IMG/VR virus record: IMGVR_UViG_3300022200_000032
Location: 13,856-77,855 of that record
Reading direction: 5' to 3' (one strand)
Length of the DNA: 64,000 bases
Source of the DNA: a virus
Program-made: the position numbers and the translations under genes
Shown here: in pieces, positions 2-17,287 of the stretch
Layout of the letters: the number at the start of each line of letters is the position of its first letter
How positions within the stretch are numbered: the first letter of the stretch is position 1
Notes under the pieces: model-generated
Told to the model about the DNA's origin: nothing
Database searches by the model: none
Seen by the model: the letters and a program-made list of their open reading frames with translations, nothing else

Positions 2-85
2 AACGATTTAATACACAACCAAAATTTGTTCTTAGAGAACAAACAAAACAGATTACTAAAATTATTAGAGGATATACATGAGTAG
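2..85 (+). CDS. 3' end of an upstream gene truncated by the window edge (...NDLIHNQNLFLENKQNRLLKLLEDIHE*)
   Basis: Frame open from position 2 to TAG at 83-85, overlapping the ATG at 78; translated by hand. Confidence 0.55.
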   Translation, partial: NDLIHNQNLFLENKQNRLLKLLEDIHE

Positions 86-1130
86 TCCAATCAACGCTTA
101 TACTTCCTGGGATCCATTGGAAGAAGTTATTGTGGGTCGTTGTTACCCACCTGAATATTTTGAGTTCATTCAAGATGACCAAGTACGCAATCAATTGCAA
201 AAAGTTCTGTCAGAAACAGAAGAGGATTTAGATAATTTACAAAAGGTATGTGAAACACACGGGGCTACTGTTCGCAGACCTGAACTTTGTATCACCAAAG
301 ACCAATTCTATATCTGGCAAACAAAGAATGGTGGCGCCCCATTACCACCATTAACTCCAAGAGATTGGCAAATTACATTAGGCGACAAATTATTGCGTGT
401 ACTACAGATGCACGAATTAGATCATATTTGCAACGATTATGAAGCTCAAGGTGGCAATGTAATTAATCCGCATAAAGCAGCAGGCGGGTATGATGAAAAC
501 TGTATTTTAAATGGTGGTTCAGCCTCATGTATTGTGCGTGTGGGTCGAGATGTGTTTTTTGATAATTCAGAATTTTTAACCGAGGCGCAAAGCGGTTGGA
601 TTAAAGAAAACGTACTAAATGACCAAGACTATCGTTTTCATGAAGCTCGTACAGAAGGTCACGGCGATGCTGTGTTTGCAATTTTAAAGCCTGGAGTTAT
701 TCTTAGCACTTATCATGCAGATGACCTTAACTTAGAAGCAGAGTTTCCTGGTTGGGATTTCTTACGTCTAAACGATAGTTCTATTATTGCTGCACAAATG
801 ATCGGACGTGTTAAAGAAGAAAATCGATTAGACGAAGCATGGTATCTTCAGGGAGATAAACCAACTGATCAATTCCGTGACTATGTTAACAACTATCTAA
901 GCCATTGGTTAGGATATATTGAAGAAACTGTGTTTGATGTTAACTGTTTAGTGTTAGATGAACAAAACGTTGTTTTTTCTGCTGAAAATAAAGAAGTATT
1001 CAAGTTTTGCGAAAAGCACGGCATTAATCCTATTGTATCTCCGCTGCGTCATCAGTATTTCTGGGATGGTGGTATTTCTTGTTGCACCCAAGATATTAGA
1101 CGTCGCGGTGGATTAGAAACTTATCTTTAA
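78..1130 (+). CDS. Amidinotransferase (glycine/inosamine-phosphate amidinotransferase, pentein fold)
   Basis: Family motifs WDPLEEVIVG, PRD, GHGDA (His), FDVN and C-terminal GGISCCT (Cys); GAGGA SD upstream. Confidence 0.85.
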   Translation: MSSPINAYTSWDPLEEVIVGRCYPPEYFEFIQDDQVRNQLQKVLSETEEDLDNLQKVCETHGATVRRPELCITKDQFYIWQTKNGGAPLPPLTPRDWQITLGDKLLRVLQMHELDHICNDYEAQGGNVINPHKAAGGYDENCILNGGSASCIVRVGRDVFFDNSEFLTEAQSGWIKENVLNDQDYRFHEARTEGHGDAVFAILKPGVILSTYHADDLNLEAEFPGWDFLRLNDSSIIAAQMIGRVKEENRLDEAWYLQGDKPTDQFRDYVNNYLSHWLGYIEETVFDVNCLVLDEQNVVFSAENKEVFKFCEKHGINPIVSPLRHQYFWDGGISCCTQDIRRRGGLETYL

Positions 1131-1879
1131 AACGGTTGCATTGAAAACGGATGTGGGGGCAATTGTTTTCCGGTACAGATTGGATGATCTAGAACATGCA
1201 ATGCATAAAAGTTAGGGATATTATATATCGAAGACTTTTTGCAGATTTTCCTAAATTCATTTTTTTGGTTAAATTCTGTTATGGCCAACTCTTCTCCACA
1301 ATAATCATTAAACATAAAACTGGTCTCTACGTCATCAAAATATAAAGGTAGAGCAGGTAGATATTTTGTTGCATCCATTTGAAATAGTGCTAATGCATTT
1401 TTTGTACTTGTATATTGATCTAAATCAACACTAACAAACCCCAACACTCTAGAAAAATTCTGGCAGAATTCTGGGATAGTATCATTAACGTCTCCAATCA
1501 CAAGATTAGCCCGATTGTCAATCTTTTCAAATAATTCGTCAATATCAATACGAAAATCTCCAGGTAACCAAAGTTCCGGATGATCTCTATGGTCGACTGG
1601 TTTAGGCATTCCACTCCCAACATCAAATCCAGTTATTGTAAAATCTATATCAAACTCTTTTTTATAGAACTCAGTGTATTCAATTAATGATAACAACCCA
1701 TTGCCGTTCGCCACTCCTAGCTCGATCACATCTATATGATCTAAATCTAGGCACTTTGCTTCCCAGATGCTCATTAACAATCCCAAAGATGTGCTGCGAT
1801 TTCCGTGAATTCCCAATCCATTTGATCTGATATGACTTGCAATGTCGCGTATCTTATTCTCAATATTTTTTAGCTGCAT
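1127..1879 (-). CDS. TylF/MycF-like class I SAM-dependent O-methyltransferase
   Basis: IELGVANGNGL, GFD..GMP, VDLDQYTST and FDD motifs. Confidence 0.6.
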   Translation of the reverse strand: MQLKNIENKIRDIASHIRSNGLGIHGNRSTSLGLLMSIWEAKCLDLDHIDVIELGVANGNGLLSLIEYTEFYKKEFDIDFTITGFDVGSGMPKPVDHRDHPELWLPGDFRIDIDELFEKIDNRANLVIGDVNDTIPEFCQNFSRVLGFVSVDLDQYTSTKNALALFQMDATKYLPALPLYFDDVETSFMFNDYCGEELAITEFNQKNEFRKICKKSSIYNIPNFYALHVLDHPICTGKQLPPHPFSMQPF

Positions 1880-3360
1880 ACAGTAACTCCATATTTCTTT
1901 TCAAAACGATCAGCATCCTTGCGATCGTTTACCATTGGTTCACCACGAATATTTAAACTTGTGTTTAACAACATTGGACAACCTGTTAAATTATACCATG
2001 CTTCAAGTAATTTGCGAATACCTGAATTATCTTTAGAAACTGTCTGCACCCGACTCGTTCCATCAACATGAACAATAGCAGGAAACTCATCTGGACGAGT
2101 GCAACGTGCGACTACTTGCATGTAAGGACTATTTTCAAAACCATGCGGCATATCGAAATATTCATGCACGTATTCTTCTAATATAATAGGAGCAAACGGG
2201 CGGAAACGTTGTCTACGCTTAATATCATTTACACGATCTTTAATGTCTGGGCCTCTTGGATCTGCTAATAAAGATCGTGTACCTAATGCACGAGGGCCAA
2301 ACTCAGCACGACCGCTTGCTACGCCTACAATTTTGCGAGACAATAACTCATCTAACAATTGTTTAACTGGATATTCTCCTGGAATATTGTGTCCTAAAAA
2401 CGCATCAGTCCAGTTTAACTTTTTACCGTATGCAAGTGCGGCTGTACCAAGTGAACTACCGGCGTCACCAGGATTAGGCATAATCCAAATATTATCATAA
2501 AAGTTGCCTAAGTTACGATTTGCCAAACAATTAAGTGCAACTCCTCCCATATATACTAGATTCTTACTAGTACCTAGTTGTCGAGCTTTGCTCATAATAT
2601 TGTAAATCATTGACTCGGCAATCTCTTGTGTTGAGCAAGCAATGTTTTCTAAATTAGCACTTTCATCTAAGAATGTACCTGTACCAATGTGCATGTTATG
2701 TTTGAATTTTGGTGGATTTATTGTTTCTACAAATTCTTTTAGAATTTCGTTTGTGTAATGGGGTTTTCCCCAACCAACCATACCCATTAAAATATATTCT
2801 TCGTCCAGTGGGCGCAATCCACAACGTTGTGTAAATGCAGAATAAAACAGTCCAATACTTTGCGGATAACGCATAGTCCATAGACGTTTATACTTTGCTA
2901 CACCTTTTTTGTTATATTCTGCGTGCCATATACTAATTGTATCCAATTCGCCAATTGCATCAATAACAACTACTGTTGCATCTGTATATGGACTTGTTTG
3001 AAATCCCGCTGCTGCATGTGATTTGTGATGTGAGAAATAAGTTAAATTGCAATTTAATAAATGGGTGTGTGTTGAAAATTGATCAAGTAATACGTCTCTA
3101 ATGTTAAAGTGCCATTGTGAAACACGTTCGCCACTGCGGATTTGCCTTAATTTTTTAAGCCAATGATTTTCATAGTATGCAACAGTGTCAATATCACCAT
3201 AACTTTCAGCATCATTAAGTATATCGGCACACAGGTTAGCATCGTGCTTTTGTTTGCTGTAGCGTTCTGAATGGCTAGCGAATAATATATCGCCATTGCG
3301 ATCAATCACACTTACACCGGCATCATGAAATCCGCAGCTTACACCTAGTATGTTACCCAT
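1870..3360 (-). CDS. O-carbamoyltransferase, NodU/CmcH/TobZ family
   Basis: FHDAG, HHKSHAA, DAIGE, GGVALNC, PGDAG, EFGPRALG, RPFAP, HVDGTSRVQTV, LNTSLN. Confidence 0.95.
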   Translation of the reverse strand: MGNILGVSCGFHDAGVSVIDRNGDILFASHSERYSKQKHDANLCADILNDAESYGDIDTVAYYENHWLKKLRQIRSGERVSQWHFNIRDVLLDQFSTHTHLLNCNLTYFSHHKSHAAAGFQTSPYTDATVVVIDAIGELDTISIWHAEYNKKGVAKYKRLWTMRYPQSIGLFYSAFTQRCGLRPLDEEYILMGMVGWGKPHYTNEILKEFVETINPPKFKHNMHIGTGTFLDESANLENIACSTQEIAESMIYNIMSKARQLGTSKNLVYMGGVALNCLANRNLGNFYDNIWIMPNPGDAGSSLGTAALAYGKKLNWTDAFLGHNIPGEYPVKQLLDELLSRKIVGVASGRAEFGPRALGTRSLLADPRGPDIKDRVNDIKRRQRFRPFAPIILEEYVHEYFDMPHGFENSPYMQVVARCTRPDEFPAIVHVDGTSRVQTVSKDNSGIRKLLEAWYNLTGCPMLLNTSLNIRGEPMVNDRKDADRFEKKYGVTVCS

Positions 3361-4108
3361 TTCTTACCTTGTTGTTGTATATGCATGCTTGCTCCAACAC
3401 AGTAAACGGTGCTCCAGCTTCGCGTGCTTGTTTAATCATTGCACGTGTATCTTTAGGGAAGCAATGTCCTCCCCAGCCACGTTCAGCAGTTACGTGCGAA
3501 TGATCTGGGCCGATGCGTTCATCTCTACACAAACTATACCGTACACTTTCAAAATCTGCACCTACATTTTCACATAGATCATATAGTTGATTAAAGAAAC
3601 TTACTTTAGTTGCTAAGAAACTATTTTCAGCATATTTAACTAGACTTGCTTCAATGTCGGTGATTAAGTGTGCTTCAATATACGGAAATGCTAGTGTCCA
3701 TATATCAAGCCAAAAATCTTGATTGCCGCCACCTAGAATAACATAATCTTGCGTAGCAAAATCTCTGTCTGCTGTTTCAGCGCGAAGAAACTCTGGGCTA
3801 TATGTGATTTCATGATTGGGAAATTGTTGTTTTAGATCTAGTACGCCTTTAACATCAACTGCTGATTTAATCACAACCGGAATAGTACTGTCTATGGTTG
3901 TTAACACTTGTGCTACATGCGAATAATCGCACGATCCATCAGCAGCACTTGGTGTGTTAACGCAAATAATAACCCCGTCGACATCGTTATAATCCTCTAC
4001 GGTTTCTAGTCCAATTTTAGGATCAACAACAATAATGTCCATGTGCTTGCTAAACTTAGCAGCAACAGCATGCCCAACAAATCCGTATCCTGCGATTGCT
4101 ATACTCAT
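3353..4108 (-). CDS. UDP-glucose/GDP-mannose dehydrogenase family protein, short form without the C-terminal domain
   Basis: GYGFVG Rossmann motif, CVNTP, IKS, SPEFL, KYAENSFLATK, catalytic GGHCFPKD. Confidence 0.85.
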   Translation of the reverse strand: MSIAIAGYGFVGHAVAAKFSKHMDIIVVDPKIGLETVEDYNDVDGVIICVNTPSAADGSCDYSHVAQVLTTIDSTIPVVIKSAVDVKGVLDLKQQFPNHEITYSPEFLRAETADRDFATQDYVILGGGNQDFWLDIWTLAFPYIEAHLITDIEASLVKYAENSFLATKVSFFNQLYDLCENVGADFESVRYSLCRDERIGPDHSHVTAERGWGGHCFPKDTRAMIKQAREAGAPFTVLEQACIYNNKVRNG

Positions 4109-4206
4109 TTGTAGATAAATGGATCGCGCTTACGTAATTCTTTTAGTTTCTTTCTGTAACGGATTTCGAGTTTAATCTTGTTCCAGAGTCGTTTAAAAAT
4201 ATTCAT
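4105..4206 (-). CDS. 33-aa basic peptide MNIFKRLWNKIKLEIRYRKKLKELRKRDPFIYK, absent from the ORF track
   Basis: Fills the gap exactly: TAATG overlap with the upstream stop and ATGA overlap with the downstream start. Confidence 0.8.
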   Translation of the reverse strand: MNIFKRLWNKIKLEIRYRKKLKELRKRDPFIYK

Positions 4207-5294
4207 TAATGTTTTCCTATTGCTTCTATCTGTCTTTGCACAAAATCTGGATCGCTCCAGTGATAATCATATTCAGCATAAGCATCTGATGTACGAATAC
4301 TATATACGTCCAAATACTTATAGAGAGTGTTCCAGATATCCTGATAATCTGTGCTATTAAAACTTTTTTGTAAATCAACCTGACCGATTTGTGGGTGTCC
4401 GATAGTCAGTGTTTTATCATCAGGATCAAATCCATTAACTATTAACCACTGTCTAAAATCCTGTAGTTTTTTCTGCATAAATTCGAAATGGCTTGGATCT
4501 CTGGCCCATTCAATATCGAAATCACCAGCAGCAAGCGTTTGTCCTCTGAGGGTGGTTGACACTAGCTCACCAACCCGGGAATCTCTGCCTTCGTCATTAA
4601 AAACTTCCCAGTGATGTTTTCCTACTGCCTTGTTGACGCCCACAAATACACCACCCAATGGCCTGGAAATGGTATCAATACCAAATAAATCAAAATCATT
4701 CTCATCTAGTTCAAATCTGGGTGCATTAATCCAGCACATGAGTTGACTGGGACGCATCCATTCAGGCATATGGAATTTTTTGCCGTAACTCAGTGCCCAA
4801 GATTCAAATTCATGACATAATAGATTGGTTTGTCTTATATACCATCGTTGTTCGTCATTGGCCTTTAACGCATATGGTGATGGTTCTTGTGCAGTTCCCT
4901 GAAGTTCTTCAAAATATAAATGCAGTCGATTGAAATGATCGTGATCAACCACAATTCTTTCTTTTCCATCATTTTCTGAAATTTCAGTTGTTAGTGAATT
5001 GCTTAATGTGAAGTGATCATCAATCTTATATCCAATATTGCTATTATTAATATATTCGATTACCTGATTAATTTTGTCAATTAAGAAGTTTCCGTTACGA
5101 TCACCATCAGCAAACCCAAAAAAGCAATAATTTTTTTCTAAATGTAGGTTATTGTTCAGTATGTTATTAAATGCATCTAACCATTTACGAGACAGGCTGT
5201 TGTCATACACATCAAAAAACACAGAATGGAATTGTCCGGTAGTATAATTACGTAATTTTATTTCAACGCTATCTAATATTTTGCCACCACTCAT
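4206..5294 (-). CDS. Hypothetical protein (362 aa) in the modification island
   Basis: Long ORF overlapping both neighbours; no motif recognised. Confidence 0.75.
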   Translation of the reverse strand: MSGGKILDSVEIKLRNYTTGQFHSVFFDVYDNSLSRKWLDAFNNILNNNLHLEKNYCFFGFADGDRNGNFLIDKINQVIEYINNSNIGYKIDDHFTLSNSLTTEISENDGKERIVVDHDHFNRLHLYFEELQGTAQEPSPYALKANDEQRWYIRQTNLLCHEFESWALSYGKKFHMPEWMRPSQLMCWINAPRFELDENDFDLFGIDTISRPLGGVFVGVNKAVGKHHWEVFNDEGRDSRVGELVSTTLRGQTLAAGDFDIEWARDPSHFEFMQKKLQDFRQWLIVNGFDPDDKTLTIGHPQIGQVDLQKSFNSTDYQDIWNTLYKYLDVYSIRTSDAYAEYDYHWSDPDFVQRQIEAIGKH

Positions 5295-6591
5295 ATATTC
5301 TTATATCCTGTTTTAATATTTCGTCCATCGTAATTGGTTGTGATCTGATGCTTTCCAGAGTTAAAATTCTTTCTTTGCCCTTGCGCATACCATCCGCATA
5401 TTCATCTATCCACTGCTCTGCAAGTGTGGGCCTATTTAGTAGTTGTTCTAGAACATCAATCAACGGCTGTTGATGTTTGTCGGCGTGCGGTTTGATCCGT
5501 TCTAACACAGAAGAAACATACGGTCCTAATATGTGTCTTGGCAAAGAGAGAGGACTCATTACAATGTCCGGGCTAAATGCAAAGGTAACCTTTGCAAGTA
5601 ACTGTGTATTTAATTCCTTAGATAGCCAGAACATATTTTCTAGTTCAAAAAGTCCTGGCAATGTTAAAGTAAAGTCCAGTCGCATCTGACGGTCATTGGT
5701 TTGTATTGCTTGCGCATCTTTGTAATTTTGCAGCCATTGATCCCACTTTAGTCCTGTACGAATATATTCTCCAACTTTGCCTGTGCCATCAATACTTGCA
5801 CAAATTTGCCAATCACGCAAATGTGCCAAAATATCTGTGTATAAGTTCAGCCCTTTGTAGTCAACTTGAGATAAGTTTGTGTTATAACGTGCATATACAC
5901 GATGACCTTGGTTTAATTCTACAATGCGTTGCATTACACGCCAATGTTCTTCAAACATAAGTGGCTCGCCGCCCACCCAGTATATTTCTTCTACACGGTT
6001 TTCTTCAACGGCATCATATAACTCCTGTGCGGCAGTTTCGGTCTGGAATTGTTGAATTTGTTTTTTGATATCTGGCTTCATCCAGTTGTTTTTGGGGTCA
6101 TTCCAGTTAATCATATTGTGCTTGCGTTGTTCTGATTCCCAAGAACTAGAAAGCATATCTCCACACATACGGCATTTGAAGTTACACAAATTAGATATAC
6201 GATAGTCCCAGGAAACAGGACGCATTGTGGTGTGACCCGATTCGTCTGTGGTTTCCCAGATACGATCGTAATGATGAGATGTTAAATGCCAAAAATAACT
6301 ACGATACACGTCTGTGTTCAATAACTTATGATTGCATACCTGACATTCATCAGGTATTTCTCCATTCATCATCTGAACACGCACATCACGTATCTGTTTA
6401 GAGTTCCAGTGTTCTTCAAGTGTGCGTGGTTTGTAATCACCAGTGCCTGATTCAATATCAATATATTGTGTAAAGTTTTGTGCGGGTTCTCTGGATGCAC
6501 AACAGAGACGGCGCTCTGTTTGTGGCGATAGATATGTGTGCGTCCAAGGCGCCATACACAGGAATTCTGGTTTTGTATCAGGCTTTCTCAT
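5269..6591 (-). CDS. Radical SAM protein with N-terminal twitch (half-SPASM) domain
   Basis: CMAPW...LCC...CQVC, then CNFKCRMC, GGEP, YNTN, SIDG, YIRTG. Confidence 0.9.
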   Translation of the reverse strand: MRKPDTKPEFLCMAPWTHTYLSPQTERRLCCASREPAQNFTQYIDIESGTGDYKPRTLEEHWNSKQIRDVRVQMMNGEIPDECQVCNHKLLNTDVYRSYFWHLTSHHYDRIWETTDESGHTTMRPVSWDYRISNLCNFKCRMCGDMLSSSWESEQRKHNMINWNDPKNNWMKPDIKKQIQQFQTETAAQELYDAVEENRVEEIYWVGGEPLMFEEHWRVMQRIVELNQGHRVYARYNTNLSQVDYKGLNLYTDILAHLRDWQICASIDGTGKVGEYIRTGLKWDQWLQNYKDAQAIQTNDRQMRLDFTLTLPGLFELENMFWLSKELNTQLLAKVTFAFSPDIVMSPLSLPRHILGPYVSSVLERIKPHADKHQQPLIDVLEQLLNRPTLAEQWIDEYADGMRKGKERILTLESIRSQPITMDEILKQDIRIYEWWQNIR

Positions 6592-7819
6592 ACAAGCAAT
6601 CTGCTAACTCCGGCAAGTAATCGTGCATAGACTGCCCTCTACGTTTATCCATACGCAGACTATCTTTGCGCAGAACTTCTGGATCAGTATCCTTGCTATT
6701 CATAAAAAACGCAATTTGTTTAAATTCTTTATAGTGACTAGAATTTACATTGGCACTTAAAAGTCTTTCTGTTGCACGTAGTTTTGCTGTTTTTGGTAGA
6801 CTTGTAATACAATGCTGCGGTGCGTCATGCAACATGTTCCAATATACAAAGTCAAACCCTTGTATATCAATCCAATTAGCAAGTTCTTCTAAATACATTA
6901 CATTAAAGACATTAACAGTAGAACAGACTTGTAATGTTATATTGTCTGAACGCTCACGCAGCTTTTTAAATTGGTCTAAGTTTTTATTAACTGTCTTCCA
7001 ATCTGCACCATAACGTTGATATTCAAAACGTCTTCCTAGATCATCGATTGAAAGTGCGATCTCAACATGTTTAAAATGCTTCCAGACTTCGTGCTCTTCT
7101 GGAAACAACGTACCATTTGTGTTGTAATGAATTTCAATGTCTTTAGCATATCCTTCGTCAACTAATCGTTGTAAGTAATCAAAATGAGGTCCGATCATAA
7201 ATGGTTCGCCGCCAGTGAATTCCAAGTAACGAATATTCTCTGAATTGTTGGCAAGACTATCCCAAAATGTTAAACTATTTTTAGGCCAAGCACCTTTGCG
7301 ATTCATTGTGTAAGCAAAACTTTCTTTGCGTTTTGCCACAGGCAGTTCTTTTAGTTCTTCGCCAGCGTAAGTTGAAGAACTCCACGATCCGCAAATGCGG
7401 CAAGCGATGTTACAAATGTTTCCTAATTTTAAATCTAGAAACTTTAGAGGTTTAGGATGAGTGGACCACTCTGTTTCTTCTTTAAGTATATCCTTTAATC
7501 TGTCTAACGTATGCATACGCTTAGACGTTCTGTTGGCGTCCTCTTCTGCCCAGCAACGTCGGCATTCTGCAGGCTGTTTACCTTCTAAAAATGCGGTTCG
7601 CAATTGATACATATACTCAGAATTTTGTACTTCTGTTAAATTAGTTTTAGTTAAATCAAACTTAACAGATTGGCTGTCAACTACCTCTCCATCATACATA
7701 CAACACGGGCGTACAGTTCCAATCGGGCTAGTTTCTAAACTAATCCAAGGCAATATGCAAAATTTGTTATGTGGTAGATTCATGGTTTCGCACCTATTAT
7801 TTCTTTGAAATAAATCCAT
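6578..7819 (-). CDS. Radical SAM protein with N-terminal twitch domain (likely start 7783, ATGA overlap)
   Basis: CILPW...PCC...CRRC, CNIACRIC, GGEPF, YNTNGT, SIDD. Confidence 0.9.
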   Translation of the reverse strand: MDLFQRNNRCETMNLPHNKFCILPWISLETSPIGTVRPCCMYDGEVVDSQSVKFDLTKTNLTEVQNSEYMYQLRTAFLEGKQPAECRRCWAEEDANRTSKRMHTLDRLKDILKEETEWSTHPKPLKFLDLKLGNICNIACRICGSWSSSTYAGEELKELPVAKRKESFAYTMNRKGAWPKNSLTFWDSLANNSENIRYLEFTGGEPFMIGPHFDYLQRLVDEGYAKDIEIHYNTNGTLFPEEHEVWKHFKHVEIALSIDDLGRRFEYQRYGADWKTVNKNLDQFKKLRERSDNITLQVCSTVNVFNVMYLEELANWIDIQGFDFVYWNMLHDAPQHCITSLPKTAKLRATERLLSANVNSSHYKEFKQIAFFMNSKDTDPEVLRKDSLRMDKRRGQSMHDYLPELADCLYEKA

Positions 7820-8748: not shown

Positions 8749-10426
8749 TTAACAATAATGCCTCTAACTCAGGAATATGATCTAAAATATTTTCTTTACG
8801 TATGACATCCAGTTGATGTGTTTTATCCCAAAACTTTTGTAACAAATAAGTTTTATCACACGATAGCATGTTTATTGCTGACATGAATCCATTGGTTGCC
8901 CTACGTAAATGATCATTAGGCTCTAACCATTCCAGATGTGCCACGAACGATTTTCTTATTTTTTCTTTATATGCAGGAGTAGCAATATCAATTCGGTAGA
9001 ACAGAGGATCTTGCAAAATGTTAACATTAAAATCTTGTGGCTTAATAAATCCTTTTTCTACCCAATTTTTATGAAAATCTGTGATGTGTAATGCATTCAT
9101 AATGCTTAATGTAGGACTAACATAAAAATCTACATGGGGACACATTTCCATCATTAATTGTCTATTCTGTTCTACATCTTGCCACTTTGTTCCTGAACGA
9201 ATATATTCTGCATGTTTTCCCATTCCATCAAGACTTGCACCGACAGCAACGTTCGAAAAATGTTGCCATTGTTCAAACGCATGCTTGTCTTTGAGTTTGA
9301 CTTGTGTGAAATTTGTATTATATATTAACCTAACATCAGTCATATTGCGTTTAATAAGTTCGTCAAGTATAATATAATGTTCTTCCATGACCAGAGGCTC
9401 GCCTCCCGCAAAATAAATCTGTTCTACGCAATCAATATGTTCTAACAATTGTTCGAGCATGTCTGTCTCGTAACGACCAGCATATACTTTTGGTTTATTA
9501 TTGCTTGCCCATTCTGGACCTGCCAAAAGGGCTTGATCCTTGTACCATTGACTACTGAAAATATGACCACAGCTACGGCATTTCAAATTACACAAATTAC
9601 TAAATCGTATATCCCAATATGCCAGTTCAAATTTCTCGTACGTTCCATCTGGTTGTGTTTCTAAAACACGTTCGATTAGATGTCCGTGATGCTTATTTGC
9701 ACTCTGTCTTCCAGAAAAGAAGCCATAACCCTCTTCTTCATAACATCTGGAGCAAGCAACACTTTCTTTATCACGTAACATGTTCAAACGTAATTCTTTC
9801 ATTGCGTTTGAATTCCAAATTTCCTCCAGTGTATTGTCTCTGCAATTTCCTACTGTTCCTGCTGGGTCTGCCATACAACATGGCATGGCCTCTCCAGTTG
9901 GATAAGCATGTAAATGAATCCAAGGATATATGCAAAATACTTTGCTATCAGTAAGTAAATATTTTTCTTTATCAGAAATATTTTCAAGTGAAATTTTCAA
10001 AGGATTGATTGATCCATATGCGTATGCTTCTTTTTTACTAGATGGATGCAGTTGTAAAATTTTTCTTTCAAAATCACCATCTACAATTTTGTAAGAAATT
10101 GGCACTGGATCATGACTAATTTGTTGTAATAATGTTAATTCATGTGCAATATGTGTATTTGTTGATTCTATTATGACGAACGCATTGCTGATATCAACTT
10201 CGTTAAGAATTGTTTGTATATTACGCAACACTAGTCCAAGATTAGACTTTTTAACATACATATCCCCAGTATGTTTCAAAATAATTCTTTCTTCAGGCTG
10301 GTATACTTCTTTGTAAATTTCTCGCAATTGTTGTTCAAATTTTTGCTGGGAACGTTGGTATGTTTCGTTCATCCAATAACTCAACTCAATTTCATAAATC
10401 ATTATACCATGCTCCAATGTGTGCAA
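8741..10426 (-). CDS. Radical SAM protein with an extra N-terminal domain and a twitch domain (likely start 10402)
   Basis: CIYPW...PCC...CSRC, CNLKCRSC, GGEP, YNTN, SLDG, YIRSG. Confidence 0.9.
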   Translation of the reverse strand: MHTLEHGIMIYEIELSYWMNETYQRSQQKFEQQLREIYKEVYQPEERIILKHTGDMYVKKSNLGLVLRNIQTILNEVDISNAFVIIESTNTHIAHELTLLQQISHDPVPISYKIVDGDFERKILQLHPSSKKEAYAYGSINPLKISLENISDKEKYLLTDSKVFCIYPWIHLHAYPTGEAMPCCMADPAGTVGNCRDNTLEEIWNSNAMKELRLNMLRDKESVACSRCYEEEGYGFFSGRQSANKHHGHLIERVLETQPDGTYEKFELAYWDIRFSNLCNLKCRSCGHIFSSQWYKDQALLAGPEWASNNKPKVYAGRYETDMLEQLLEHIDCVEQIYFAGGEPLVMEEHYIILDELIKRNMTDVRLIYNTNFTQVKLKDKHAFEQWQHFSNVAVGASLDGMGKHAEYIRSGTKWQDVEQNRQLMMEMCPHVDFYVSPTLSIMNALHITDFHKNWVEKGFIKPQDFNVNILQDPLFYRIDIATPAYKEKIRKSFVAHLEWLEPNDHLRRATNGFMSAINMLSCDKTYLLQKFWDKTHQLDVIRKENILDHIPELEALLLNE

Positions 10427-11750
10427 ATGTATCAGTTATACTCTTTCCACGTCGACGATCATACTGTGCATAAAATTTCTTAAAATCGTTGTGTAATGCT
10501 GACATATCAAATGTGTCCGAATGCGGTGTCTTAACTACATCCAGATAATCAATTAACCGCTGTACTTGGTTAATTTCCATTTCGTGCAACAGTATGTTTT
10601 TATATGCGTGTTCTTCTAACCAAGTGTCTAATTTATCTGCATAATCCATACGTAGATCTTCTGGCAACACCAACGGTGACTGAAAACTCGGAAAACGTAA
10701 TATGTTTAATGTGAAAGTTGGATAATTTTTTCCGTATTGCTTTTTTAATTCTAACATCCAATCCAAAAACTCAGTCAATGATTCTAAACACAACGCATTA
10801 ATAGTACACATAACATGAAATCCATTTACGCTACCTTCTGTAATAACACGATGTACGTTACGCTCCCATTGTTCCCAATTTAACCCATCACGTATATATT
10901 CTGCATGAGCACTCATGCTTTCTTGCGACGTGTATAACTGGAAATCTTTAATGTTGTGACTTGCTTCAATTAACTTATCAATCTTTTCATCTTCGATTCC
11001 AAGATTAGAGTTAAGTGCAAACGACACTTCTGATTCATTATTAATATACCAATCAATGAGTCGCATAGTATGCGGGCTCATCATTGGCTCGCCACCAGTT
11101 AATCGTAATTCTTGTAACGTTTTATGTAAGTCCGATTCCCACCATTTAAAGAATGCTTCTACGTAGGGATTTTCTTCTTTGGGTTTAAACAACTGTGCTG
11201 AATCGTGTGTGTGGGTGAAATGGTTACGCCCATCTGATATTAGATCTGTGTAAGGTCCGTTCTTTTTCAAATCCGTTACCCAACTTGTACTGAATGCTGG
11301 ATTGCAGTATGAACACGAAAATTGACACGTCCTGTCAAATGCAATTTCTAATGTTTTTAAGTCAATATCTGTTTCAGGATTTGCTGCCATTGCTGTAACA
11401 ACATCCCACTCATCGTAGATCACAGTTTTATAAACACGATCTGAAATGTTGTCGCGGCCGATATCTTCAATTTTCCAGCAATATTCACAACCCGCCGGAC
11501 GTTCTGAATGCTGCATCATACGGCGTTCATCTTTCTTTTTGCGTGTATTGTGTAGCGCCTTCGGATTAGCAGTTACTTCATCAACACTCACATGATGCGG
11601 AAGTGGATGATGACAACTCGTGGTCATACCAGATCCTAACCAAATGGTAGCATTATACCATTTAGCCGCACAAAAACTTGTACTGAACTCATCTATCCAT
11701 TTTTTAATTTCAAGATCCGTTTCTCGACCTGGTTTACGCAATTTACTCAT
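10392..11750 (-). CDS. Radical SAM protein, N-twitch FC.AKW/SC.HP subfamily
   Basis: FCAAKW...SCHHP...CEYC, CQFSCSYC, TGGEP, NSN, EYIRDG. Confidence 0.9.
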   Translation of the reverse strand: MSKLRKPGRETDLEIKKWIDEFSTSFCAAKWYNATIWLGSGMTTSCHHPLPHHVSVDEVTANPKALHNTRKKKDERRMMQHSERPAGCEYCWKIEDIGRDNISDRVYKTVIYDEWDVVTAMAANPETDIDLKTLEIAFDRTCQFSCSYCNPAFSTSWVTDLKKNGPYTDLISDGRNHFTHTHDSAQLFKPKEENPYVEAFFKWWESDLHKTLQELRLTGGEPMMSPHTMRLIDWYINNESEVSFALNSNLGIEDEKIDKLIEASHNIKDFQLYTSQESMSAHAEYIRDGLNWEQWERNVHRVITEGSVNGFHVMCTINALCLESLTEFLDWMLELKKQYGKNYPTFTLNILRFPSFQSPLVLPEDLRMDYADKLDTWLEEHAYKNILLHEMEINQVQRLIDYLDVVKTPHSDTFDMSALHNDFKKFYAQYDRRRGKSITDTFAHIGAWYNDL

Positions 11751-11759: not shown

Positions 11760-13181
11760 TTAATTAGACTGTGATTGTTGTGCAAAATATTTGCACTCGT
11801 TCCACCAGGTAGACATTTCTGGAAAAGTTTTCAAAAAATTAAACTCGTGTCGTCTGTCGTATTCGTTGAAGAAACGATAAAAATCTGCCTTATTTTGTTC
11901 TAGATTTTCAGCAGGCTGGCGCATCCATGCGATATCTCTATCCATTCGATTAATTTCGTAATCTTTAAACCCTTTAAACCGTGTATCTGGAGTTTCACAA
12001 TGCTCGATCATCCAGGTCATCAATTCTTCCAATCTATCTGCATACATATCTGGGAGTAAACGCATACTTTGCCAATTGGGCGTGTGTAATACAGGGGTAT
12101 CAAACCACACACGCTGATATGTGTCTGAGTAAACCTGCCTTAATCCGTGTATAGCAGGAATGAGTTTATCCAGACTGGTAATCGATAAGTTATTCATAGT
12201 GATGATAAACGTTAGACTACTTCTATACGGTACTTCTGTTAAAAATTGATTAACCCGATCCCACATTAAATCAAAATTTAGCCCTGCTCGCATATATTCT
12301 GCTTGCTTTCCGAATCCGTCAAGTGACACGTACTGCATAAAATGCTCAACATTTTCGCCATCATTGCAAATACGCTTAACATAATCTAGATACTTGTTCC
12401 ATAGTTTCTGTTCTACAGATAAGTTAGATGTCACGTTAATATGCAAGTCAGGTTTTGGATTTTCTAATACATAATCAAATACGCGATATGTATTTTTATC
12501 CATTAAAGGTTCGCCACCAGTCATACGGAAGTGTTTTAGGTCTTTATATAATTCTGGCCACCATTCCCAGAATGCTTCTACATACGGGTTATATTCAGAA
12601 TGCGGAATAGGTCTACGGTCGCCTTGGAAATAAGCAGGATCGTTGTGCGGTTGGCTTGTAGGATAGGCGCCATATTCTTTTGCTTGACGCATCCACGAGC
12701 TGCTAAATTGAGGTGAACAATAACTACACTCTAAATTACAAGCAGAGTTGAAGTTCACTTCAACATACGCAGGATTAGTGTCTGCCATTGGGTCAGACAC
12801 AACCTCATCAAACTTTTCAATAGCCCACGGTTCTCCCGAACGGTAGTGTCTATCAGAAAGTTTTCCGTTGTCTTCCATTGCCCAGCAATAAAAGCACTCC
12901 TCGGGTCTCCTCCCCTCCATCATGTGTTTGCGTTGTAGTTTTTTATAATCGGTGTTATGCAACTTACTGGGATTTCCAGTAAGTTCATCTACAGGAATTT
13001 TATGCAATGGCGGATGATAACATGAGTTATTCATGCCATTAGTTAGATGTAATGAAACTTGTTTCCATTTAGCCAAACAAAAGCTCGGACTCACAGTATC
13101 TAGCTTTTGTTGTGCTATTTCAGCATCAGATAAGAACTTTGATTTAAAATCCTTGTCTACCTCATCACCTTTGTTTTGCAT
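11760..13181 (-). CDS. Radical SAM protein, N-twitch FC.AKW/SC.HP subfamily
   Basis: FCLAKW...SCYHP...CFYC, CNLECSYC, TGGEP, TSN, EYMRAG. Confidence 0.9.
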   Translation of the reverse strand: MQNKGDEVDKDFKSKFLSDAEIAQQKLDTVSPSFCLAKWKQVSLHLTNGMNNSCYHPPLHKIPVDELTGNPSKLHNTDYKKLQRKHMMEGRRPEECFYCWAMEDNGKLSDRHYRSGEPWAIEKFDEVVSDPMADTNPAYVEVNFNSACNLECSYCSPQFSSSWMRQAKEYGAYPTSQPHNDPAYFQGDRRPIPHSEYNPYVEAFWEWWPELYKDLKHFRMTGGEPLMDKNTYRVFDYVLENPKPDLHINVTSNLSVEQKLWNKYLDYVKRICNDGENVEHFMQYVSLDGFGKQAEYMRAGLNFDLMWDRVNQFLTEVPYRSSLTFIITMNNLSITSLDKLIPAIHGLRQVYSDTYQRVWFDTPVLHTPNWQSMRLLPDMYADRLEELMTWMIEHCETPDTRFKGFKDYEINRMDRDIAWMRQPAENLEQNKADFYRFFNEYDRRHEFNFLKTFPEMSTWWNECKYFAQQSQSN

Positions 13182-13190: not shown

Positions 13191-14354
13191 TCAGAGATAT
13201 TTGTTGGGGCCTGATCCATCACGATGTAAATCATTCGTAATACAGTGAATACCAGCATCCCAAAAATATTTGTGTCTAAATGGCGATACATGGACCTCAA
13301 CTCCGTGTCTTGCGCATGCCTCTTCAACTTGGTCATTATGTGCTGATACAATTACATTCTTTTGATCTATCACTAGCATGTTTACATCAAATACAGTTTC
13401 ATGTACTTCCCCAACCCATTCATCAAAATAATGGTCTACCATTGCTGTCATGTTAGGATCTTTTTCAAAACCTGGAAAGAACCAACGACCTTTATTGCGC
13501 TTCATTGAAAATTCAAATTCACGCATATGAGCGTAATTTGAATCTGGCAAATATACAACTTCCCAATCTGGGAAGGTATCTTTATATGTTGGAATATCAT
13601 GTAAACTAATAATTAAACCAGGTGTTACTGGACAATATACAGCGTCACCGTGACCACCTGCATTTACGATCTTATTAGTGGTATTAGGGAAATACTCGTT
13701 AACCTGATCGAGCAATGTTTTCTTATCATCATGAAATGTTTGTGTTGCAAACATCAAGTCTTGTCCCAGTCGGCTAACAAAGCATCCATTGATAAAATCT
13801 AGATCAGTATACTCAATAGTATTACTGTTATTTCTTAAATCATCAAAAATATGATCATAGAATTTTAATTTGGCATCCAGATGATTCTGATCAAATTTTT
13901 GAAATTGTTCAAATTTCGCACGGACTTCATCAGCAAATTGTGGCCAGTCATTATAGAAATCTAATGGACGAACATAATCTGGCCAGTATTCTTGTTTATT
14001 TTGTCTGTAAAAAACTGACCAGGCATGACTGCCATTGGGTATTTTGGGTACCCAAAATTTGTCCCCAATCATGATAAAGTAATCACGAGGTGCGGTCGGT
14101 GGCTGCACCCACTTACCATCAATATAAAGTTCATTCATATTTTCTGGAAATTCTGGACGCACAGTTCGTACACCGAACTTGCCTTCTAGTAATTTAATTA
14201 AGTTTTGGTAATCTTCTTCTGTTTCTTCTGCTAATTTTTCAAAAATACCCCGTGTTTGGGTATTTTCAATCCAAGAATAAAACTCTGGTGGGTAAGTCTT
14301 CCCTACCATGCAATATTTCAAAGGATCCCAGTGTTGATATACTGAATATGACAT
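13191..14354 (-). CDS. Second amidinotransferase
   Basis: WDPLK, PRD, GHGDA, VFDVN, FWDAGIHCIT; paralog of 78..1130. Confidence 0.85.
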   Translation of the reverse strand: MSYSVYQHWDPLKYCMVGKTYPPEFYSWIENTQTRGIFEKLAEETEEDYQNLIKLLEGKFGVRTVRPEFPENMNELYIDGKWVQPPTAPRDYFIMIGDKFWVPKIPNGSHAWSVFYRQNKQEYWPDYVRPLDFYNDWPQFADEVRAKFEQFQKFDQNHLDAKLKFYDHIFDDLRNNSNTIEYTDLDFINGCFVSRLGQDLMFATQTFHDDKKTLLDQVNEYFPNTTNKIVNAGGHGDAVYCPVTPGLIISLHDIPTYKDTFPDWEVVYLPDSNYAHMREFEFSMKRNKGRWFFPGFEKDPNMTAMVDHYFDEWVGEVHETVFDVNMLVIDQKNVIVSAHNDQVEEACARHGVEVHVSPFRHKYFWDAGIHCITNDLHRDGSGPNKYL

Positions 14355-14431
14355 TAAAGTTTTCTCATTTTATATGTTTCGATGTAATTAGTCAATTGTT
14401 GTAGGAGCATAATAATTTTTATTTCCTGTCA

Positions 14432-15391
14432 TCAATGGATAACATCTATTTCGCGCACAGTGGCGCCCATGTTGTACCAGTTACTACGATAATGGTGTTT
14501 GAAGAATTTACTTGTTGTTTCGTCCATATACATAACAGGCAAGTCTAAACGTTCTTGCAATGCATGTCCATAATATTCGCTTTGTTCTGCAATTTGATCT
14601 GTGTGTACTTGTTCGTCGAAAATACGCTCTAAATTGTCAAACCACTGTACTTCAGTATGATCCCAATCCGAAAGCATAGTCATGCACGTTCCCATTCTTG
14701 CGCCAAGAATGGCATATTCGCCAAACTCTACATCACGACCAACGTTCTGCCATACCGTTAAATGATCCATGTTACGCTTGTGAACAGCATCTTTAAATTC
14801 TGTTTCTGTTGGTTTGCGTCCGCGGTCTAAACACATTTTAACACCTTCTCTAAAGCCTGCTCTCCAAGCATGAAATGCTGATCCATTTGGGTATGTTGTA
14901 GAATAACAGTCGTGCATTGGCCAATACAATGGATCAAAACAAAACTCAACATTTGTATCAGCAGAACCGTCAGATGCTTCGTGAGTTTTCATATTCATAA
15001 TAAACTCACGTGTCCAGCAACTTAGTCCACCGTTACCGTACATGAGTCCATTAATATGATTAACTGCCCTCCAACGAAATACAGCTTTCTCATATTCAGG
15101 TGTTTTCATTTCCAATTGCAGATTGAAAAATTCTGGGTTTGGCAAATTGTCACCATCAATAAGCACAAAACGTTCTGTTGTGCTTGCTTCTGCTGCTGCT
15201 TTGTGTGCTGCATCTGATCCTTTTACTCCGTCAACACGAACTGCCCAGGGCACCATGTTTTTAATTTTTACCCAAAATTCTTCTTTCTGTGGCTCGTCAT
15301 AGCTCAGGTATACGACGTCCAAATCGGCGATATCAATCAAGTTCATATGTTTTGTTCTTCCAGTATATTGATTTAGTTGTGTTTGATACAA
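14432..15391 (-). CDS. Putative GT-A fold glycosyltransferase (likely start 15346)
   Basis: LSYDEP, GVKG...AH, DxD motif IDGDN, AWRAGFREGVK. Confidence 0.55.
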   Translation of the reverse strand: MYQTQLNQYTGRTKHMNLIDIADLDVVYLSYDEPQKEEFWVKIKNMVPWAVRVDGVKGSDAAHKAAAEASTTERFVLIDGDNLPNPEFFNLQLEMKTPEYEKAVFRWRAVNHINGLMYGNGGLSCWTREFIMNMKTHEASDGSADTNVEFCFDPLYWPMHDCYSTTYPNGSAFHAWRAGFREGVKMCLDRGRKPTETEFKDAVHKRNMDHLTVWQNVGRDVEFGEYAILGARMGTCMTMLSDWDHTEVQWFDNLERIFDEQVHTDQIAEQSEYYGHALQERLDLPVMYMDETTSKFFKHHYRSNWYNMGATVREIDVIH

Positions 15392-15671
15392 TGGTCACAT
15401 CTTTGGGATGTGTTGGAAAACCACTGTCTCCAGGAACCAGTTTTCCAATCGATTCGTGTCTGATATACACAATCTTGTTATTTTTTATGCAGATGTCATA
15501 TCGAGATTCATTATATGTTTTTTTATCAATCACAATGTACACTCCCGGTTCGTCTTGTGTAGTATAAAATAAAGGAGTCCCAGATTGATCATCATAATAC
15601 AAGCGATATTCTAATTCAATCAGCTTCTGATTTTGATCAACCTGATCGAGTGCTTCCCAAAAGTGTGTCAT
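15333..15671 (-). CDS. Hypothetical protein
   Basis: ORF overlapping both neighbours in the operon. Confidence 0.7.
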   Translation of the reverse strand: MTHFWEALDQVDQNQKLIELEYRLYYDDQSGTPLFYTTQDEPGVYIVIDKKTYNESRYDICIKNNKIVYIRHESIGKLVPGDSGFPTHPKDVTIVSNTTKSIYWKNKTYELD

Positions 15672-16473
15672 AATGTTTGTTTACTATTTTACTAAATTCT
15701 TTAATATTATAATGGAACGGATATTCTTGGTCAACTGTGTTAATTCTGATATTGGAACCATCTAATTCCCAAATTAATTCTCGTGTCCAATCTTCTTGTA
15801 GTAATCCATTAATTTTTCCCTTCATGTGAATTAAACTTGGGTAACTGACTGATGGTGGTAATGTTACATTTTCCACACCAATAATTTGCGCAGCAAGTGC
15901 ATATACAACATCGGTTGTTCCTGGATCATCACTTCCACCTTTGATTGTTGCTTGAAAAGCTGGCCAATTTTCAAAAATATTTCTGACTAAATTAAAGAAC
16001 TGTTGTGCTGTTCTACTTAGGCGCCAATAAGTAATGGCGTTATAAACATCAGGTAAACCATTTAAATCAAATATTTTACGATAATGTCGCATATTTGACC
16101 GCTGATTCAAATAATTGCGTGCGCCTGTTGTTAATACAACGTCTTTGTGCTCAAACATTGTCCACCAGTGCCAGATACTATGCGGAATAATCATATCTGC
16201 TTCCAGCTTAATTGTTTGCCTAAATGGACTCGCCGTAAAAATTTGCCAATCATTTTTAAGTTTCCACTGGCTATCTGATGCCTGATCTCCATATGGCAAT
16301 GGCTTTACAAAGTCAAATACTGGATCAGTAACTTCAGATGAAGTTACCAAGCACACTTTTGCTTGCGGAGTATGATACTTTAGAGAACGTGCCAGAGCGC
16401 GAGCGCAGTCAATATAATCAACTTCGCTTGTATTTTCTGCCACAATCAAATAGCCGCGTTCTGCTTCAACCAT
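15637..16473 (-). CDS. Putative glycosyltransferase (GT8-like GT-A fold)
   Basis: GYLIVA...LARSLK start, SPF..TIKLEADM (DxD-like), TDVVYA, HMK. Confidence 0.55.
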   Translation of the reverse strand: MVEAERGYLIVAENTSEVDYIDCARALARSLKYHTPQAKVCLVTSSEVTDPVFDFVKPLPYGDQASDSQWKLKNDWQIFTASPFRQTIKLEADMIIPHSIWHWWTMFEHKDVVLTTGARNYLNQRSNMRHYRKIFDLNGLPDVYNAITYWRLSRTAQQFFNLVRNIFENWPAFQATIKGGSDDPGTTDVVYALAAQIIGVENVTLPPSVSYPSLIHMKGKINGLLQEDWTRELIWELDGSNIRINTVDQEYPFHYNIKEFSKIVNKHYDTLLGSTRSG

Positions 16474-17287
16474 TTATCATCTTCTCCAGTGAAAACTTGT
16501 TTAAAAAATGTATATCATGATCATCAACTACGATGCGCACAGGACGTTCGATATGATTTTTATACTTAACATATTCTATCTCAAACTTACGAGCATCTAA
16601 CTGGTTAATCTCTGCATTATCACTAATCATTGGCATATTCCAGGGAATTTCGGGAATAGCATTGATGCGGTGTCCGTAAACAATGCCTAATGCAATGCTT
16701 ACAACATAGTCATTTCTAAACGGACTTGACCTAAACTTGTAGATACGTGAATAATGTGCATAATTCTCACGTATCATTTTAATTGTATCAAATATTGTTT
16801 TAGCGAACTCTGTTTTTCTAAAGAAGATAACGGTTGCCCAGTAATGTGGGAAATAATATTTAGGTAAAAAGTCGTATGGTTGGAAACTTTTTCTATCTGT
16901 AATATCGTATGGTTTACGATGTACTAAAAAATCTTCAGGAGATTCAAATAGAGCAAGTAGCTGTTCGCTATTAACAATATAATCTGAATCGATAACAACA
17001 GTTTCGTCATATGGAGTCAAGTCAAATGCTTGGAAACGATTAACATTCTTCCATTCAGCAACGTTTCCATCTTTGTGTATATTAAAATTACGTTGATGTC
17101 CTGCTAGTGCTTCTGTTAAAATTAAATTGTGTTTGACGTTTTCTTTTGTGCTAGCACTTGCTTCATCGGTAACAATACTTGTTGGCAATTTTAAGATAGA
17201 TTCAATGCGGTCAGCAATCCACAAAGCATGTCCTAAATAATCAATCACTTCATTGTTAAACGCAAATATTAAAAAACCACGAGTCAT
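16466..17287 (-). CDS. Putative glycosyltransferase (GT8-like), paralog of 15637..16473
   Basis: GFLIFA, TPYDETVVIDSDY (DxD), WATVIFFRK, FRND, HFLNK. Confidence 0.6.
   Translation of the reverse strand: MTRGFLIFAFNNEVIDYLGHALWIADRIESILKLPTSIVTDEASASTKENVKHNLILTEALAGHQRNFNIHKDGNVAEWKNVNRFQAFDLTPYDETVVIDSDYIVNSEQLLALFESPEDFLVHRKPYDITDRKSFQPYDFLPKYYFPHYWATVIFFRKTEFAKTIFDTIKMIRENYAHYSRIYKFRSSPFRNDYVVSIALGIVYGHRINAIPEIPWNMPMISDNAEINQLDARKFEIEYVKYKNHIERPVRIVVDDHDIHFLNKFSLEKMING

Follow-up and report, generated by a model that had tools for sequence, protein, structure and literature searches.

An island of N-terminal-twitch radical SAM, carbamoyltransferase and GT-A-like genes in a freshwater phage contig

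Gene content and setting of the island

We analyzed a stretch of viral DNA of 64,000 nucleotides (the window), which is part of one viral contig of 77,855 bp (bases 13856-77855; IMG/VR record IMGVR_UViG_3300022200_000032). Positions 78-17287 of the window are occupied by a gene island that encodes two amidinotransferases, a carbamoyltransferase, a methyltransferase, a nucleoside diphosphate (NDP)-sugar dehydrogenase-like protein, an array of radical S-adenosylmethionine (SAM) proteins and several proteins with a glycosyltransferase A (GT-A)-like fold. The core of this island keeps its gene order in other viral contigs, and the whole is best read as a candidate pathway for a decorated glycan.

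The contig is classed as linear and ~22% complete by IMG/VR and CheckV, a figure that would put the full genome at ~350 kb. The nearest homologs of its 1133-aa baseplate wedge protein are those of jumbo myophages such as Atu_ph07, Serratia phage BF, GAP32 and XaC1, with 32-35% identity over the full length, and the source is most likely an uncultured freshwater jumbo myophage of the Rak2/GAP32/Atu_ph07 type. All sequencing runs found to contain the sequence are freshwater metagenome DNA, and none are RNA. To the right of the island, PHROG matches include baseplate wedge and hub proteins, virion proteins and an SbcC-like nuclease. The G+C content is uniform over the window (0.35-0.43) and does not set the island apart, and for the first 20 kb megablast found no match among the phages in GenBank.

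The island starts at genome position 7642 and ends near 31142, a total of ~23.5 kb of which 6.2 kb lie to the left of the window. Read rightwards, the contig on this side encodes dihydrofolate reductase (DHFR), thymidylate synthase (ThyA), a short-chain dehydrogenase/reductase (SDR) of the NDP-sugar 4,6-dehydratase/epimerase type, a DegT aminotransferase, a 675-aa GT-A protein on the minus strand, and two proteins with a TEKT motif (TEKTb and TEKTc), followed by amidinotransferase 1. The latter (78-1130) closes a plus-strand sub-operon whose first gene lies outside the window on the left, and the remaining island genes in the window are on the minus strand. The 675-aa gene and the plus-strand TEKTb gene diverge from starts only 8 nt apart (genome 11615-11624), and the promoters of both must therefore lie within coding sequence.

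A preliminary description of this DNA had placed a tightly packed biosynthetic island at 78-17287, directly downstream of the tail genes on the same strand. The open reading frames (ORFs) of this interval are located exactly as it gave them, 13 of the 15 junctions overlap or are at most 9 nt apart, and tail-fibre, giant-protein and baseplate genes were found directly upstream in the same orientation. The end that it set at the window edge did not hold, as the SDR, DegT, GT-A and TEKT genes continue for 6.2 kb to the left. Its families were confirmed, that of the methyltransferase weakly, and three genes were missing from its list: a 362-aa protein, g16 (4206-5294), a 33-aa peptide (4105-4206) and a 112-aa ORF (15333-15671), all on the minus strand. 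The 112-aa ORF has a 45% identical ortholog in the related viral locus L040 and no family match.

The right boundary of the island (17284-18209, minus strand) contains small ORFs and a gene for a protein with a TnsA-like endonuclease N-terminal domain (17463-17852, minus strand; PF08722, E 1.5e-19), which occupies the same place in L040 and may be a homing endonuclease. The 83-nt gap that follows the last fibre gene (18127-18209) carries a stem-loop (AAAGGGC/GCCCTTT) and then a sigma-70-like promoter (TTTACT-17-TATAAT at 18165-18137). A further promoter-like site (TTGACT-17-TAAAAT) is located in the 77-nt gap upstream of amidinotransferase 2. Overall, promoter-like and terminator-like sites are not enriched in comparison with shuffled sequences. 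Since a hairpin and sigma-70-like promoters stand between the fibre genes and the island, the island may be transcribed on its own.

An ORF of 5047 aa (21561-36704, minus strand), rich in Thr, Ser, Asn, Asp and Gly, separates the baseplate wedge gene from the fibre genes. Only faint FG-GAP and CBM_5_12 matches were obtained for its product, which is probably a very large protein of the baseplate or fibre, akin to VrlC of pelagi- and cyanomyophages.

Enzyme families encoded in the island

Radical SAM genes form the largest group in the island. The NCBIfam family NF033640 (N_Twi_rSAM) describes proteins in which a twitch (half-SPASM) auxiliary-cluster domain precedes the radical SAM core, with a curated cut-off of 170 bits. 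Five minus-strand genes exceed this cut-off (291-388 bits) and all five have the CxxxCxxC motif: rSAM-A (5269-6591; 440 aa, 291 bits, CNFKCRMC with the twitch cysteines), rSAM-B (6578-7819; 413 aa, 339 bits, CNIACRIC), rSAM-C (8741-10426; 561 aa, 388 bits over residues 161-557, CNLKCRSC), rSAM-D (10392-11750; 452 aa, 300 bits) and rSAM-E (11760-13181; 473 aa, 325 bits, CNLECSYC). The N-terminal twitch cysteine pattern is present in these genes and in a sixth, degenerate paralog (7780-8748, minus strand; 322 aa), which has kept an N-terminal extension and the twitch domain, lacks CxxxCxxC and scores 83 bits over profile positions 1-118 only. No relatives of this paralog were found among the viral contigs.

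The paralogs are 21-33% identical to each other, which indicates that the duplications are old, while orthologs of rSAM-A are 59-83% identical. The extension of rSAM-C, ~130-160 aa long, is common to the degenerate paralog, with 29% identity over the extension and twitch domain. In the closest relative of this phage, the viral locus L004, the extension belongs to rSAM-B (530 aa), so that it moves between paralogs. The rSAM-D protein is 52% identical to the product of a gene in the Ralstonia jumbo phage RsoM2USA, located close upstream of the carbamoyltransferase gene of that phage. Of the cassette, RsoM2USA has these two genes only, whereas Vibrio phage K566 has an array of four rSAM genes.

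The carbamoyltransferase of the NodU/TobZ type (1870-3360, minus strand; 496 aa) is the anchor gene of the cassette. Both of its Pfam domains score above the gathering threshold, Carbam_trans_N (PF02543) with 120 bits against a cut-off of 24 (E 2e-34) and Carbam_trans_C (PF16861) with 175 bits against 27 (E 2e-51). The protein falls below the NodU equivalog cut-off (138 bits versus 1000). Homologs with 49-88% identity were found at 38 viral loci, and the carbamoyltransferase of RsoM2USA is 45% identical. In at least 19 related loci there is a counterpart of the basic 33-aa peptide (4105-4206), which ends in DPFIYK (…YRKKLKELRKRDPFIYK); the residues Y..DPFIY are invariant and in most of these loci the peptide gene immediately precedes the carbamoyltransferase gene. 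The peptide has no match in Pfam. A complex prediction for the carbamoyltransferase with the peptide scored 0.01, which gives no answer and is evidence neither way.

In this phage and in L004, the peptide and carbamoyltransferase genes are separated by an inserted gene for a short protein like UDP-glucose/GDP-mannose dehydrogenases (UGDH-like; 3353-4108, minus strand; 251 aa), which matches PF03721 in part and PF00984. Its NAD-binding and central domains are present, and it has kept GxGxxG and the catalytic Cys (GGHCFPKD). The ortholog in L004 is equal in length and the ratio of nonsynonymous to synonymous substitution rates (dN/dS) between them is 0.085, so that the gene is a maintained short form rather than a decaying one. 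The adjacent methyltransferase gene (1127-1879, minus strand; 250 aa) encodes a class I SAM-dependent enzyme of the TylF/CalS11-like kind according to weak matches to CalS11 (E 0.004 over 59 residues), phrog_6608 (E 8e-8) and the Pfam family Methyltransf_24 (E 0.19). Its ortholog was found in L004 only, with a dN/dS of 0.09.

The two amidinotransferases are 30% identical to each other. Amidinotransferase 1 (350 aa), of the AGAT/StrB1/SxtG family, matched AGAT (E 3e-19) and StrB1 (E 3e-13) in a phmmer search of the PDB, as well as SxtG and HsvA, with E-values of 3e-19 to 5e-13 for the four. Amidinotransferase 2 (13191-14354, minus strand; 387 aa) matched HsvA (E 2e-7) and also StrB1. Residues D96, D158, H195-x-D197, H325 and C335 are invariant in both proteins and six relatives; we take the Asp, His-x-Asp and C-terminal Cys residues, by their positions, to be the catalytic residues of AGAT. 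Orthologs of amidinotransferase 1 occur in seven contigs, always together with TEKTb and TEKTc, and its dN/dS is 0.04. Amidinotransferase 2 is a lineage-specific insertion that is absent at the equivalent position in L040 and is almost unique to this phage. By their distribution, both amidinotransferases are accessory modules and not part of the cassette core.

The structural model of the 675-aa protein (predicted local distance difference test score, pLDDT, 84) has two domains of the GT-A/nucleotide-diphospho-sugar-transferase fold, at residues ~223-390 and 444-585. VIA gave Z-scores of 10-12 to B4GALNT1, WrtF, SpsA, GnT-I and PBCV-1 A64R, and Foldseek matched Mimivirus R699, LH3, the K4 chondroitin polymerase K4CP and SunS with E-values from 1e-5 to 1e-3 (best 1.5e-5). 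At the sequence level, nothing was found for this protein by a profile search of the PDB or in Pfam at E up to 10. The lengths of its relatives span 434-1896 aa, and in every case the gene comes after that for the carbamoyltransferase. A single-domain GT-A-like protein (14432-15391, minus strand; 319 aa) is homologous to residues 433-664 of the 675-aa protein, that is, to the C-terminal GT-A domain. This smaller paralog has a faint match to PF13641; its family has an invariant D79-x-D81, and the family profile found nothing in the PDB. Two further paralogs of the GT8-like (glycogenin-like) kind, of 278 and 273 aa (15637-16473 and 16466-17287, minus strand), contain an LDAD motif. As single sequences they had no Pfam match at E up to 10; a profile of the pair and six relatives matched glycogenin-1 in the PDB (E 2.9e-5) at profile positions 16-106, which cover the nucleotide-binding and DxD region. 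The GT-A fold is common to glycosyltransferases and nucleotidyltransferases, and glycosyltransferase activity is therefore the putative assignment for all of these proteins.

Two families of the island resisted classification. The TEKT family comprises more than 5800 sequence clusters, all unnamed, some of them on contigs of 347-365 kb, and neither single sequences nor the family profile matched Pfam (E up to 10) or the PDB. A TE(K)T...P motif and an embedding similarity of 0.79 to GT10 provide only a lead towards a GT10-like role. The GT10 family PF00852 has no match in the contig; at E 1e-20 it also had none in 151 Bacteroidota genomes, a search in which the control matched nowhere and which is thus uninformative. 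The orphan g16 is located always between rSAM-A and the peptide/carbamoyltransferase genes. Its 19 orthologs share 58 invariant positions, mostly charged or aromatic, and the many charged ones suggest an enzyme. Its model is confident (pLDDT 85). A profile search of the PDB and a Foldseek search of the PDB with the model found nothing, and VIA returned only a cyclophilin-like barrel at Z ~9, within the background range. The structural relatives of g16 are uncharacterized phage proteins, including one from Atu_ph07.

Most assignments made in the preliminary description withstood this analysis. One carbamoyltransferase, two amidinotransferases and three GT-A-like proteins had been named, and all of them are borne out, respectively, by the paired Pfam domains, by AGAT/StrB1/HsvA matches with intact catalytic residues, and by homology to a modelled domain, the DxD motif and the glycogenin profile match. 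The others need qualification: the six twitch/radical SAM genes resolve into five intact enzymes and one that retains the twitch part only, the NDP-sugar dehydrogenase has the Rossmann motif and catalytic Cys and is not a full three-domain enzyme, and for the TylF-like methyltransferase the class is indicated by the weak CalS11 and phrog_6608 matches.

Conservation and counterparts elsewhere

All island proteins were mapped onto the 38 carbamoyltransferase loci. The core order rSAM-E, D, C, B, A, g16, peptide, carbamoyltransferase and multidomain GT-A protein is shared by no fewer than 17 different viral contigs, 40-352 kb in length. Behind this core, DegT, SDR, ThyA and DHFR genes are often located on the opposite strand. 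One metagenome-assembled genome (MAG) of Haliscomenobacter has the whole island on a 148-kb contig, with 56-64% identity, and a second copy on another contig; both are probably phage contigs. Several contigs have TEKT genes interleaved among the radical SAM genes. In seven, the TEKTb-TEKTc-amidinotransferase 1 block is inverted between the carbamoyltransferase and GT-A genes and looks like an insertion, while others have full-length UGDH genes in place of the short one. Amidinotransferase 2 and the degenerate radical SAM gene are peculiar to this phage. When compared with L004, the 12 island genes with a usable ortholog have dN/dS values of 0.04-0.09, which identify the island as being under strong purifying selection. 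Co-conservation of the genes had been set beforehand as a test of the proposed pathway, and the outcome is a shared core order, low dN/dS and intact catalytic residues.

In bacteria, NF033640 genes were found in four of 401 sampled Bacteroidota genomes, always as two to four adjacent copies. For instance, a stretch of a Bacteroidota chromosome (L060, G081:C2:1208000-1227999) has two N-twitch genes next to genes for five PhyH-family dioxygenases and a WelO5-like oxygenase. Also encoded there are a methyltransferase, a reductive-dehalogenase-like Fe-S protein and a secreted 842-aa protein, sorted by the type IX secretion system (T9SS), with a Peptidase_S74 domain, the intramolecular-chaperone domain of the tail-fibre kind. 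It looks like an uncharacterized tailoring cluster. NF033640 itself is a catalog entry without a known reaction, to which five genes of the island conform and the sixth does not.

Among the closest published systems are the hypervariable islands of pelagimyophages and cyanomyophages known as 'host recognition clusters', for which a change of the host O-chain was proposed without experiment (Zaragoza-Solas et al. 2020, PMC7029224). Like the island described here, they are large, lie in the structural module by the tail fibres and a giant baseplate/fibre protein, and contain glycosyltransferases, sugar-nucleotide enzymes and radical SAM cassettes. However, they belong to another phage lineage, and the present island has a syntenic rather than hypervariable core and no Fe/2-oxoglutarate-dependent oxygenases. 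Pelagibacter phage Mosig EXVC030M has DegT, MoaA-like radical SAM genes, a carbamoyltransferase followed by a methyltransferase, and an epimerase, with the DegT/radical SAM/carbamoyltransferase/methyltransferase block located between a fibre gene and the giant VrlC gene; by sequence, only the carbamoyltransferase is common to both islands, at 30% identity. The T4-like cyanophage S-SCSM2R has a cluster of AHBA_syn/DegT, radical SAM and inosamine-type amidinotransferase genes whose function was declared unclear (PMC12801897). That cluster consists of three genes against ~25 here, and the carbamoyltransferase match in S-SCSM2R has 26% identity.

The enzyme content also resembles the streptidine/bluensidine and 2-deoxystreptamine logic of aminoglycosides (StsC, StrB1, TobZ, BtrN), with a DegT protein, two AGAT/StrB1-type amidinotransferases, a TobZ/NodU-type carbamoyltransferase and twitch radical SAM enzymes. 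In contrast to those pathways, the twitch domain is N-terminal rather than C-terminal, glycosyltransferases are many, the genes are virus-encoded, and there is no inositol-phosphate or 2-deoxy-scyllo-inosose (DOI) synthase, kinase, phosphatase or exporter. The identity of StrB1 and AGAT to the island amidinotransferases is mainly confined to the C-terminal catalytic region. Soluble GT-A enzymes and rare-sugar pathways that work without host membrane machinery are shared with PBCV-1 (A64R), with Mimivirus (R699 and the fibril glycans) and with virion glycosylation by mycobacteriophages, and the 675-aa protein has both A64R and R699 as structural matches. In those systems a virion glycan has been demonstrated, and they do not have radical SAM arrays, AGAT-type amidinotransferases or NodU-type carbamoyltransferases.

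In our literature searches, no characterization was found of this cassette, of the N-twitch radical SAM family, or of g16, TEKT or the peptide. The statement that no characterized phage pathway has this composition thus stands, with uncharacterized analogs in print (PMC7029224, PMC12801897). The general kind of island is already mentioned in these genome papers, without a function, and glycosylation by phages and giant viruses is known.

Product, acceptor and alternative explanations

From the families, folds, motifs, synteny and selection described above, and the absence of membrane proteins, we infer a route in five steps. The SDR 4,6-dehydratase/epimerase, DegT and the UGDH-like protein would make amino or deoxy NDP-sugars. 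A chain would then be built on a cytoplasmic acceptor by the GT-A enzymes, namely the 675-aa tandem protein, its single-domain paralog and the two GT8-like proteins, and the orphan TEKT proteins would probably join in chain assembly. Single sugars would be edited by the five old and non-redundant N-twitch radical SAM enzymes, likely through C-H abstraction to a ketone or epimer by analogy with BtrN and HygY. Ketones could be transaminated by DegT, with the resulting amines converted to guanidines by the two amidinotransferases. In the last step, the carbamoyltransferase, with the 33-aa peptide, and the O-methyltransferase would cap hydroxyl groups. O-carbamoylation and O-methylation cap sugars in novobiocin, tobramycin and Nod factors.

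A crude hydropathy scan (19-residue window, mean of at least 1.6) detected no hydrophobic segment in any island protein, including those of the left extension, and genes for a flippase, a polymerase or an initiating transferase are absent from the island. Accordingly, a cytoplasmic acceptor is expected. Taken together with a canonical thymidylate synthase next to the island, the lack of membrane segments makes a cytoplasmic glycan pathway the best reading, with a carbamoylated, methylated and guanidinylated glycan as the predicted product. That the island is a self-contained, soluble phage pathway which builds and heavily edits an oligosaccharide is, in our estimate, a matter of even chances. 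The preliminary description had likewise proposed a phage pathway, for a guanidinylated/carbamoylated glycan; the gene families, folds and conserved synteny fit one for making and decorating sugars, with the amidinotransferases outside its core.

Several observations weigh against the glycan pathway. No member of the N-twitch radical SAM family has been characterized, and in bacteria its genes adjoin oxygenase rather than sugar genes, so that the substrate could be a peptide, a protein or a lipid. The alignment of the UGDH-like protein to 4a7p stops at residue 301 of 446, and the whole C-terminal nucleotide-sugar-binding domain is absent. The TEKT proteins have no detectable family, their glycosyltransferase role being derived from a short motif and a weak embedding lead. 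No sugar-activating nucleotidyltransferase was seen in the contig, which covers only ~22% of the genome. The hairpin and promoters that separate the island from the fibre genes make the adjacency of tail genes weak evidence for a virion target. They also weaken the late-gene context assumed in the preliminary description.

For the acceptor, our tentative guess is a protein of the virion, for example the fibres or the giant protein of 5047 aa, and we place it somewhat short of an even chance. It is based on the solubility of the enzymes, on the position of the island beside the fibre genes and the T/S/N-rich 5047-aa protein, and on the fold matches to giant-virus capsid and fibril glycosyltransferases. 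We regard as rather doubtful the more specific proposal that, in giant aquatic phages, the array of at least five N-twitch radical SAM enzymes, together with TEKT, g16 and a peptide-assisted carbamoyltransferase, turns a glycan built by the phage into a cationic guanidino/carbamoyl coat on the virion.

The same soluble enzymes could instead remodel the host envelope, acting at the cytoplasmic face on lipid-linked O-antigen, capsule or core intermediates so that rival phages fail to adsorb. This is the published proposal for the analogous pelagimyophage islands with glycosyltransferases and radical SAM cassettes (PMC7029224). It is consistent with the common use of GT8 and GT2-like folds in lipopolysaccharide synthesis, and the sigma-70-like promoters in the two gaps of the island would permit expression before the late genes. 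We nevertheless find it unlikely, since Wzx, Wzy, GtrA/B, an initiating phosphoglycosyl transferase and membrane segments are all missing from the island, the sharing of a conserved cassette by phages of many samples and contig sizes is easier to reconcile with a phage-internal target than with O-units specific to host strains, and a slow change of surface polymers would be of little gain to a lytic jumbo phage. A product other than a glycan, either a modified protein or peptide side chain (for instance on a fibre) or a free aminocyclitol or aminoglycoside-like compound, would reduce the glycosyltransferases to a minor part. SPASM/twitch radical SAM enzymes classically act on peptides, and the bacterial N-twitch genes neighbor PhyH and WelO5 oxygenases, a methyltransferase and a protein with a tail-fibre-type chaperone domain. 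DegT, two amidinotransferases and a carbamoyltransferase recall streptidine/bluensidine logic, and the S-SCSM2R trio was called 'antibiotic synthesis genes' in a study whose virion proteome includes an amidinotransferase and a prolyl hydroxylase (PMC12801897). However, the number of GT-A domains (at least five), with another three putative transferases, is too high for a minor part, and a GT-A protein always follows the carbamoyltransferase, whatever its length within the range of 434-1896 aa. Moreover, neither a precursor peptide nor an inositol-phosphate synthase, a kinase or an exporter was seen, and the amidinotransferases are accessory to the core. We consider such a product quite unlikely.

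Modification of phage DNA, in which the carbamoyltransferase and glycosyltransferases would decorate 5-hydroxymethyl-pyrimidines, appears highly improbable. Phage glycosyltransferases that build glycans on DNA are one precedent. The other is a phage-encoded enzyme of the same two-domain NodU/TobZ family, which acts on 5-hydroxymethylcytosine (5hmC) to make 5-carbamoyloxymethylcytosine and co-occurs with thymidylate synthase homologs (Yang et al. 2021, PMC8670742). All island enzymes are soluble, and no more than a few kb separate the carbamoyltransferase gene from a ThyA gene, both here and in at least 10 relatives. In contrast to the 5hmC precedent, where the ThyA homolog is dCMP-specific (Asp-177), ThyA of this phage and of the 10 relatives with a readable motif (...GVPFNIASY...) has Asn at the equivalent of E. 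coli position 177, as in the type specific for deoxyuridine monophosphate (dUMP). This residue, the His of the PCH motif, an NCBIfam equivalog score above the cut-off and the adjacent DHFR partner indicate a true dTMP synthase. The carbamoyltransferase also differs in its conserved neighbors, which are the GT-A protein and radical SAM enzymes, and in the MetaGPA analysis carbamoyltransferases flanked by glycosyltransferases fell in contigs with unmodified DNA (PMC8670742). No hydroxymethylase, dNMP kinase or dCTPase was found in the contig, which represents ~22% of the genome.

Returning to the glycan pathway, if this reading is right, large phages of a group that is very common in fresh and marine waters would spend 15-25 kb on such chemistry. 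The island contains four families without an assigned reaction, namely the N-twitch radical SAM enzymes, g16, TEKT and the DPFIYK peptide, and places AGAT-type amidinotransferases in a context never described before. A cationic guanidino/carbamoyl coat, if present, would be a post-translational decoration with no known parallel among viruses, and the reactions behind it would lack a characterized precedent. The identity of the product would give a function to a cataloged radical SAM family, explain a recurrent island that genome papers merely list, and test whether phages glycosylate their own particles with self-made rare sugars, as giant eukaryotic viruses do.

Several minor features of the contig were also recorded. 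An analogy to collagen glycosylation, suggested by the LH3 and R699 matches, was dropped as no ORF of the contig has collagen-like (GXY) repeats of at least six units. The T4 late promoter TATAAATA occurs once in the 64 kb of the window against 6.7 expected occurrences, and the T4 late motif is unused there. A GTATAATAC-like extended -10 element recurs in intergenic gaps, at 40110-40166 and 49709-49807 of the window and at 769-916 and 3108-3165 of the genome, which suggests sigma-70-type promoters of a phage-specific flavor. The largest gap between the two fibre genes measures 141 nt (19200-19340). Outside the island and adjoining SbcCD-like nuclease genes, a plus-strand gene (53467-55221) encodes a 584-aa fusion of an N-terminal radical SAM domain with a C-terminal SDR/RmlD-like domain.

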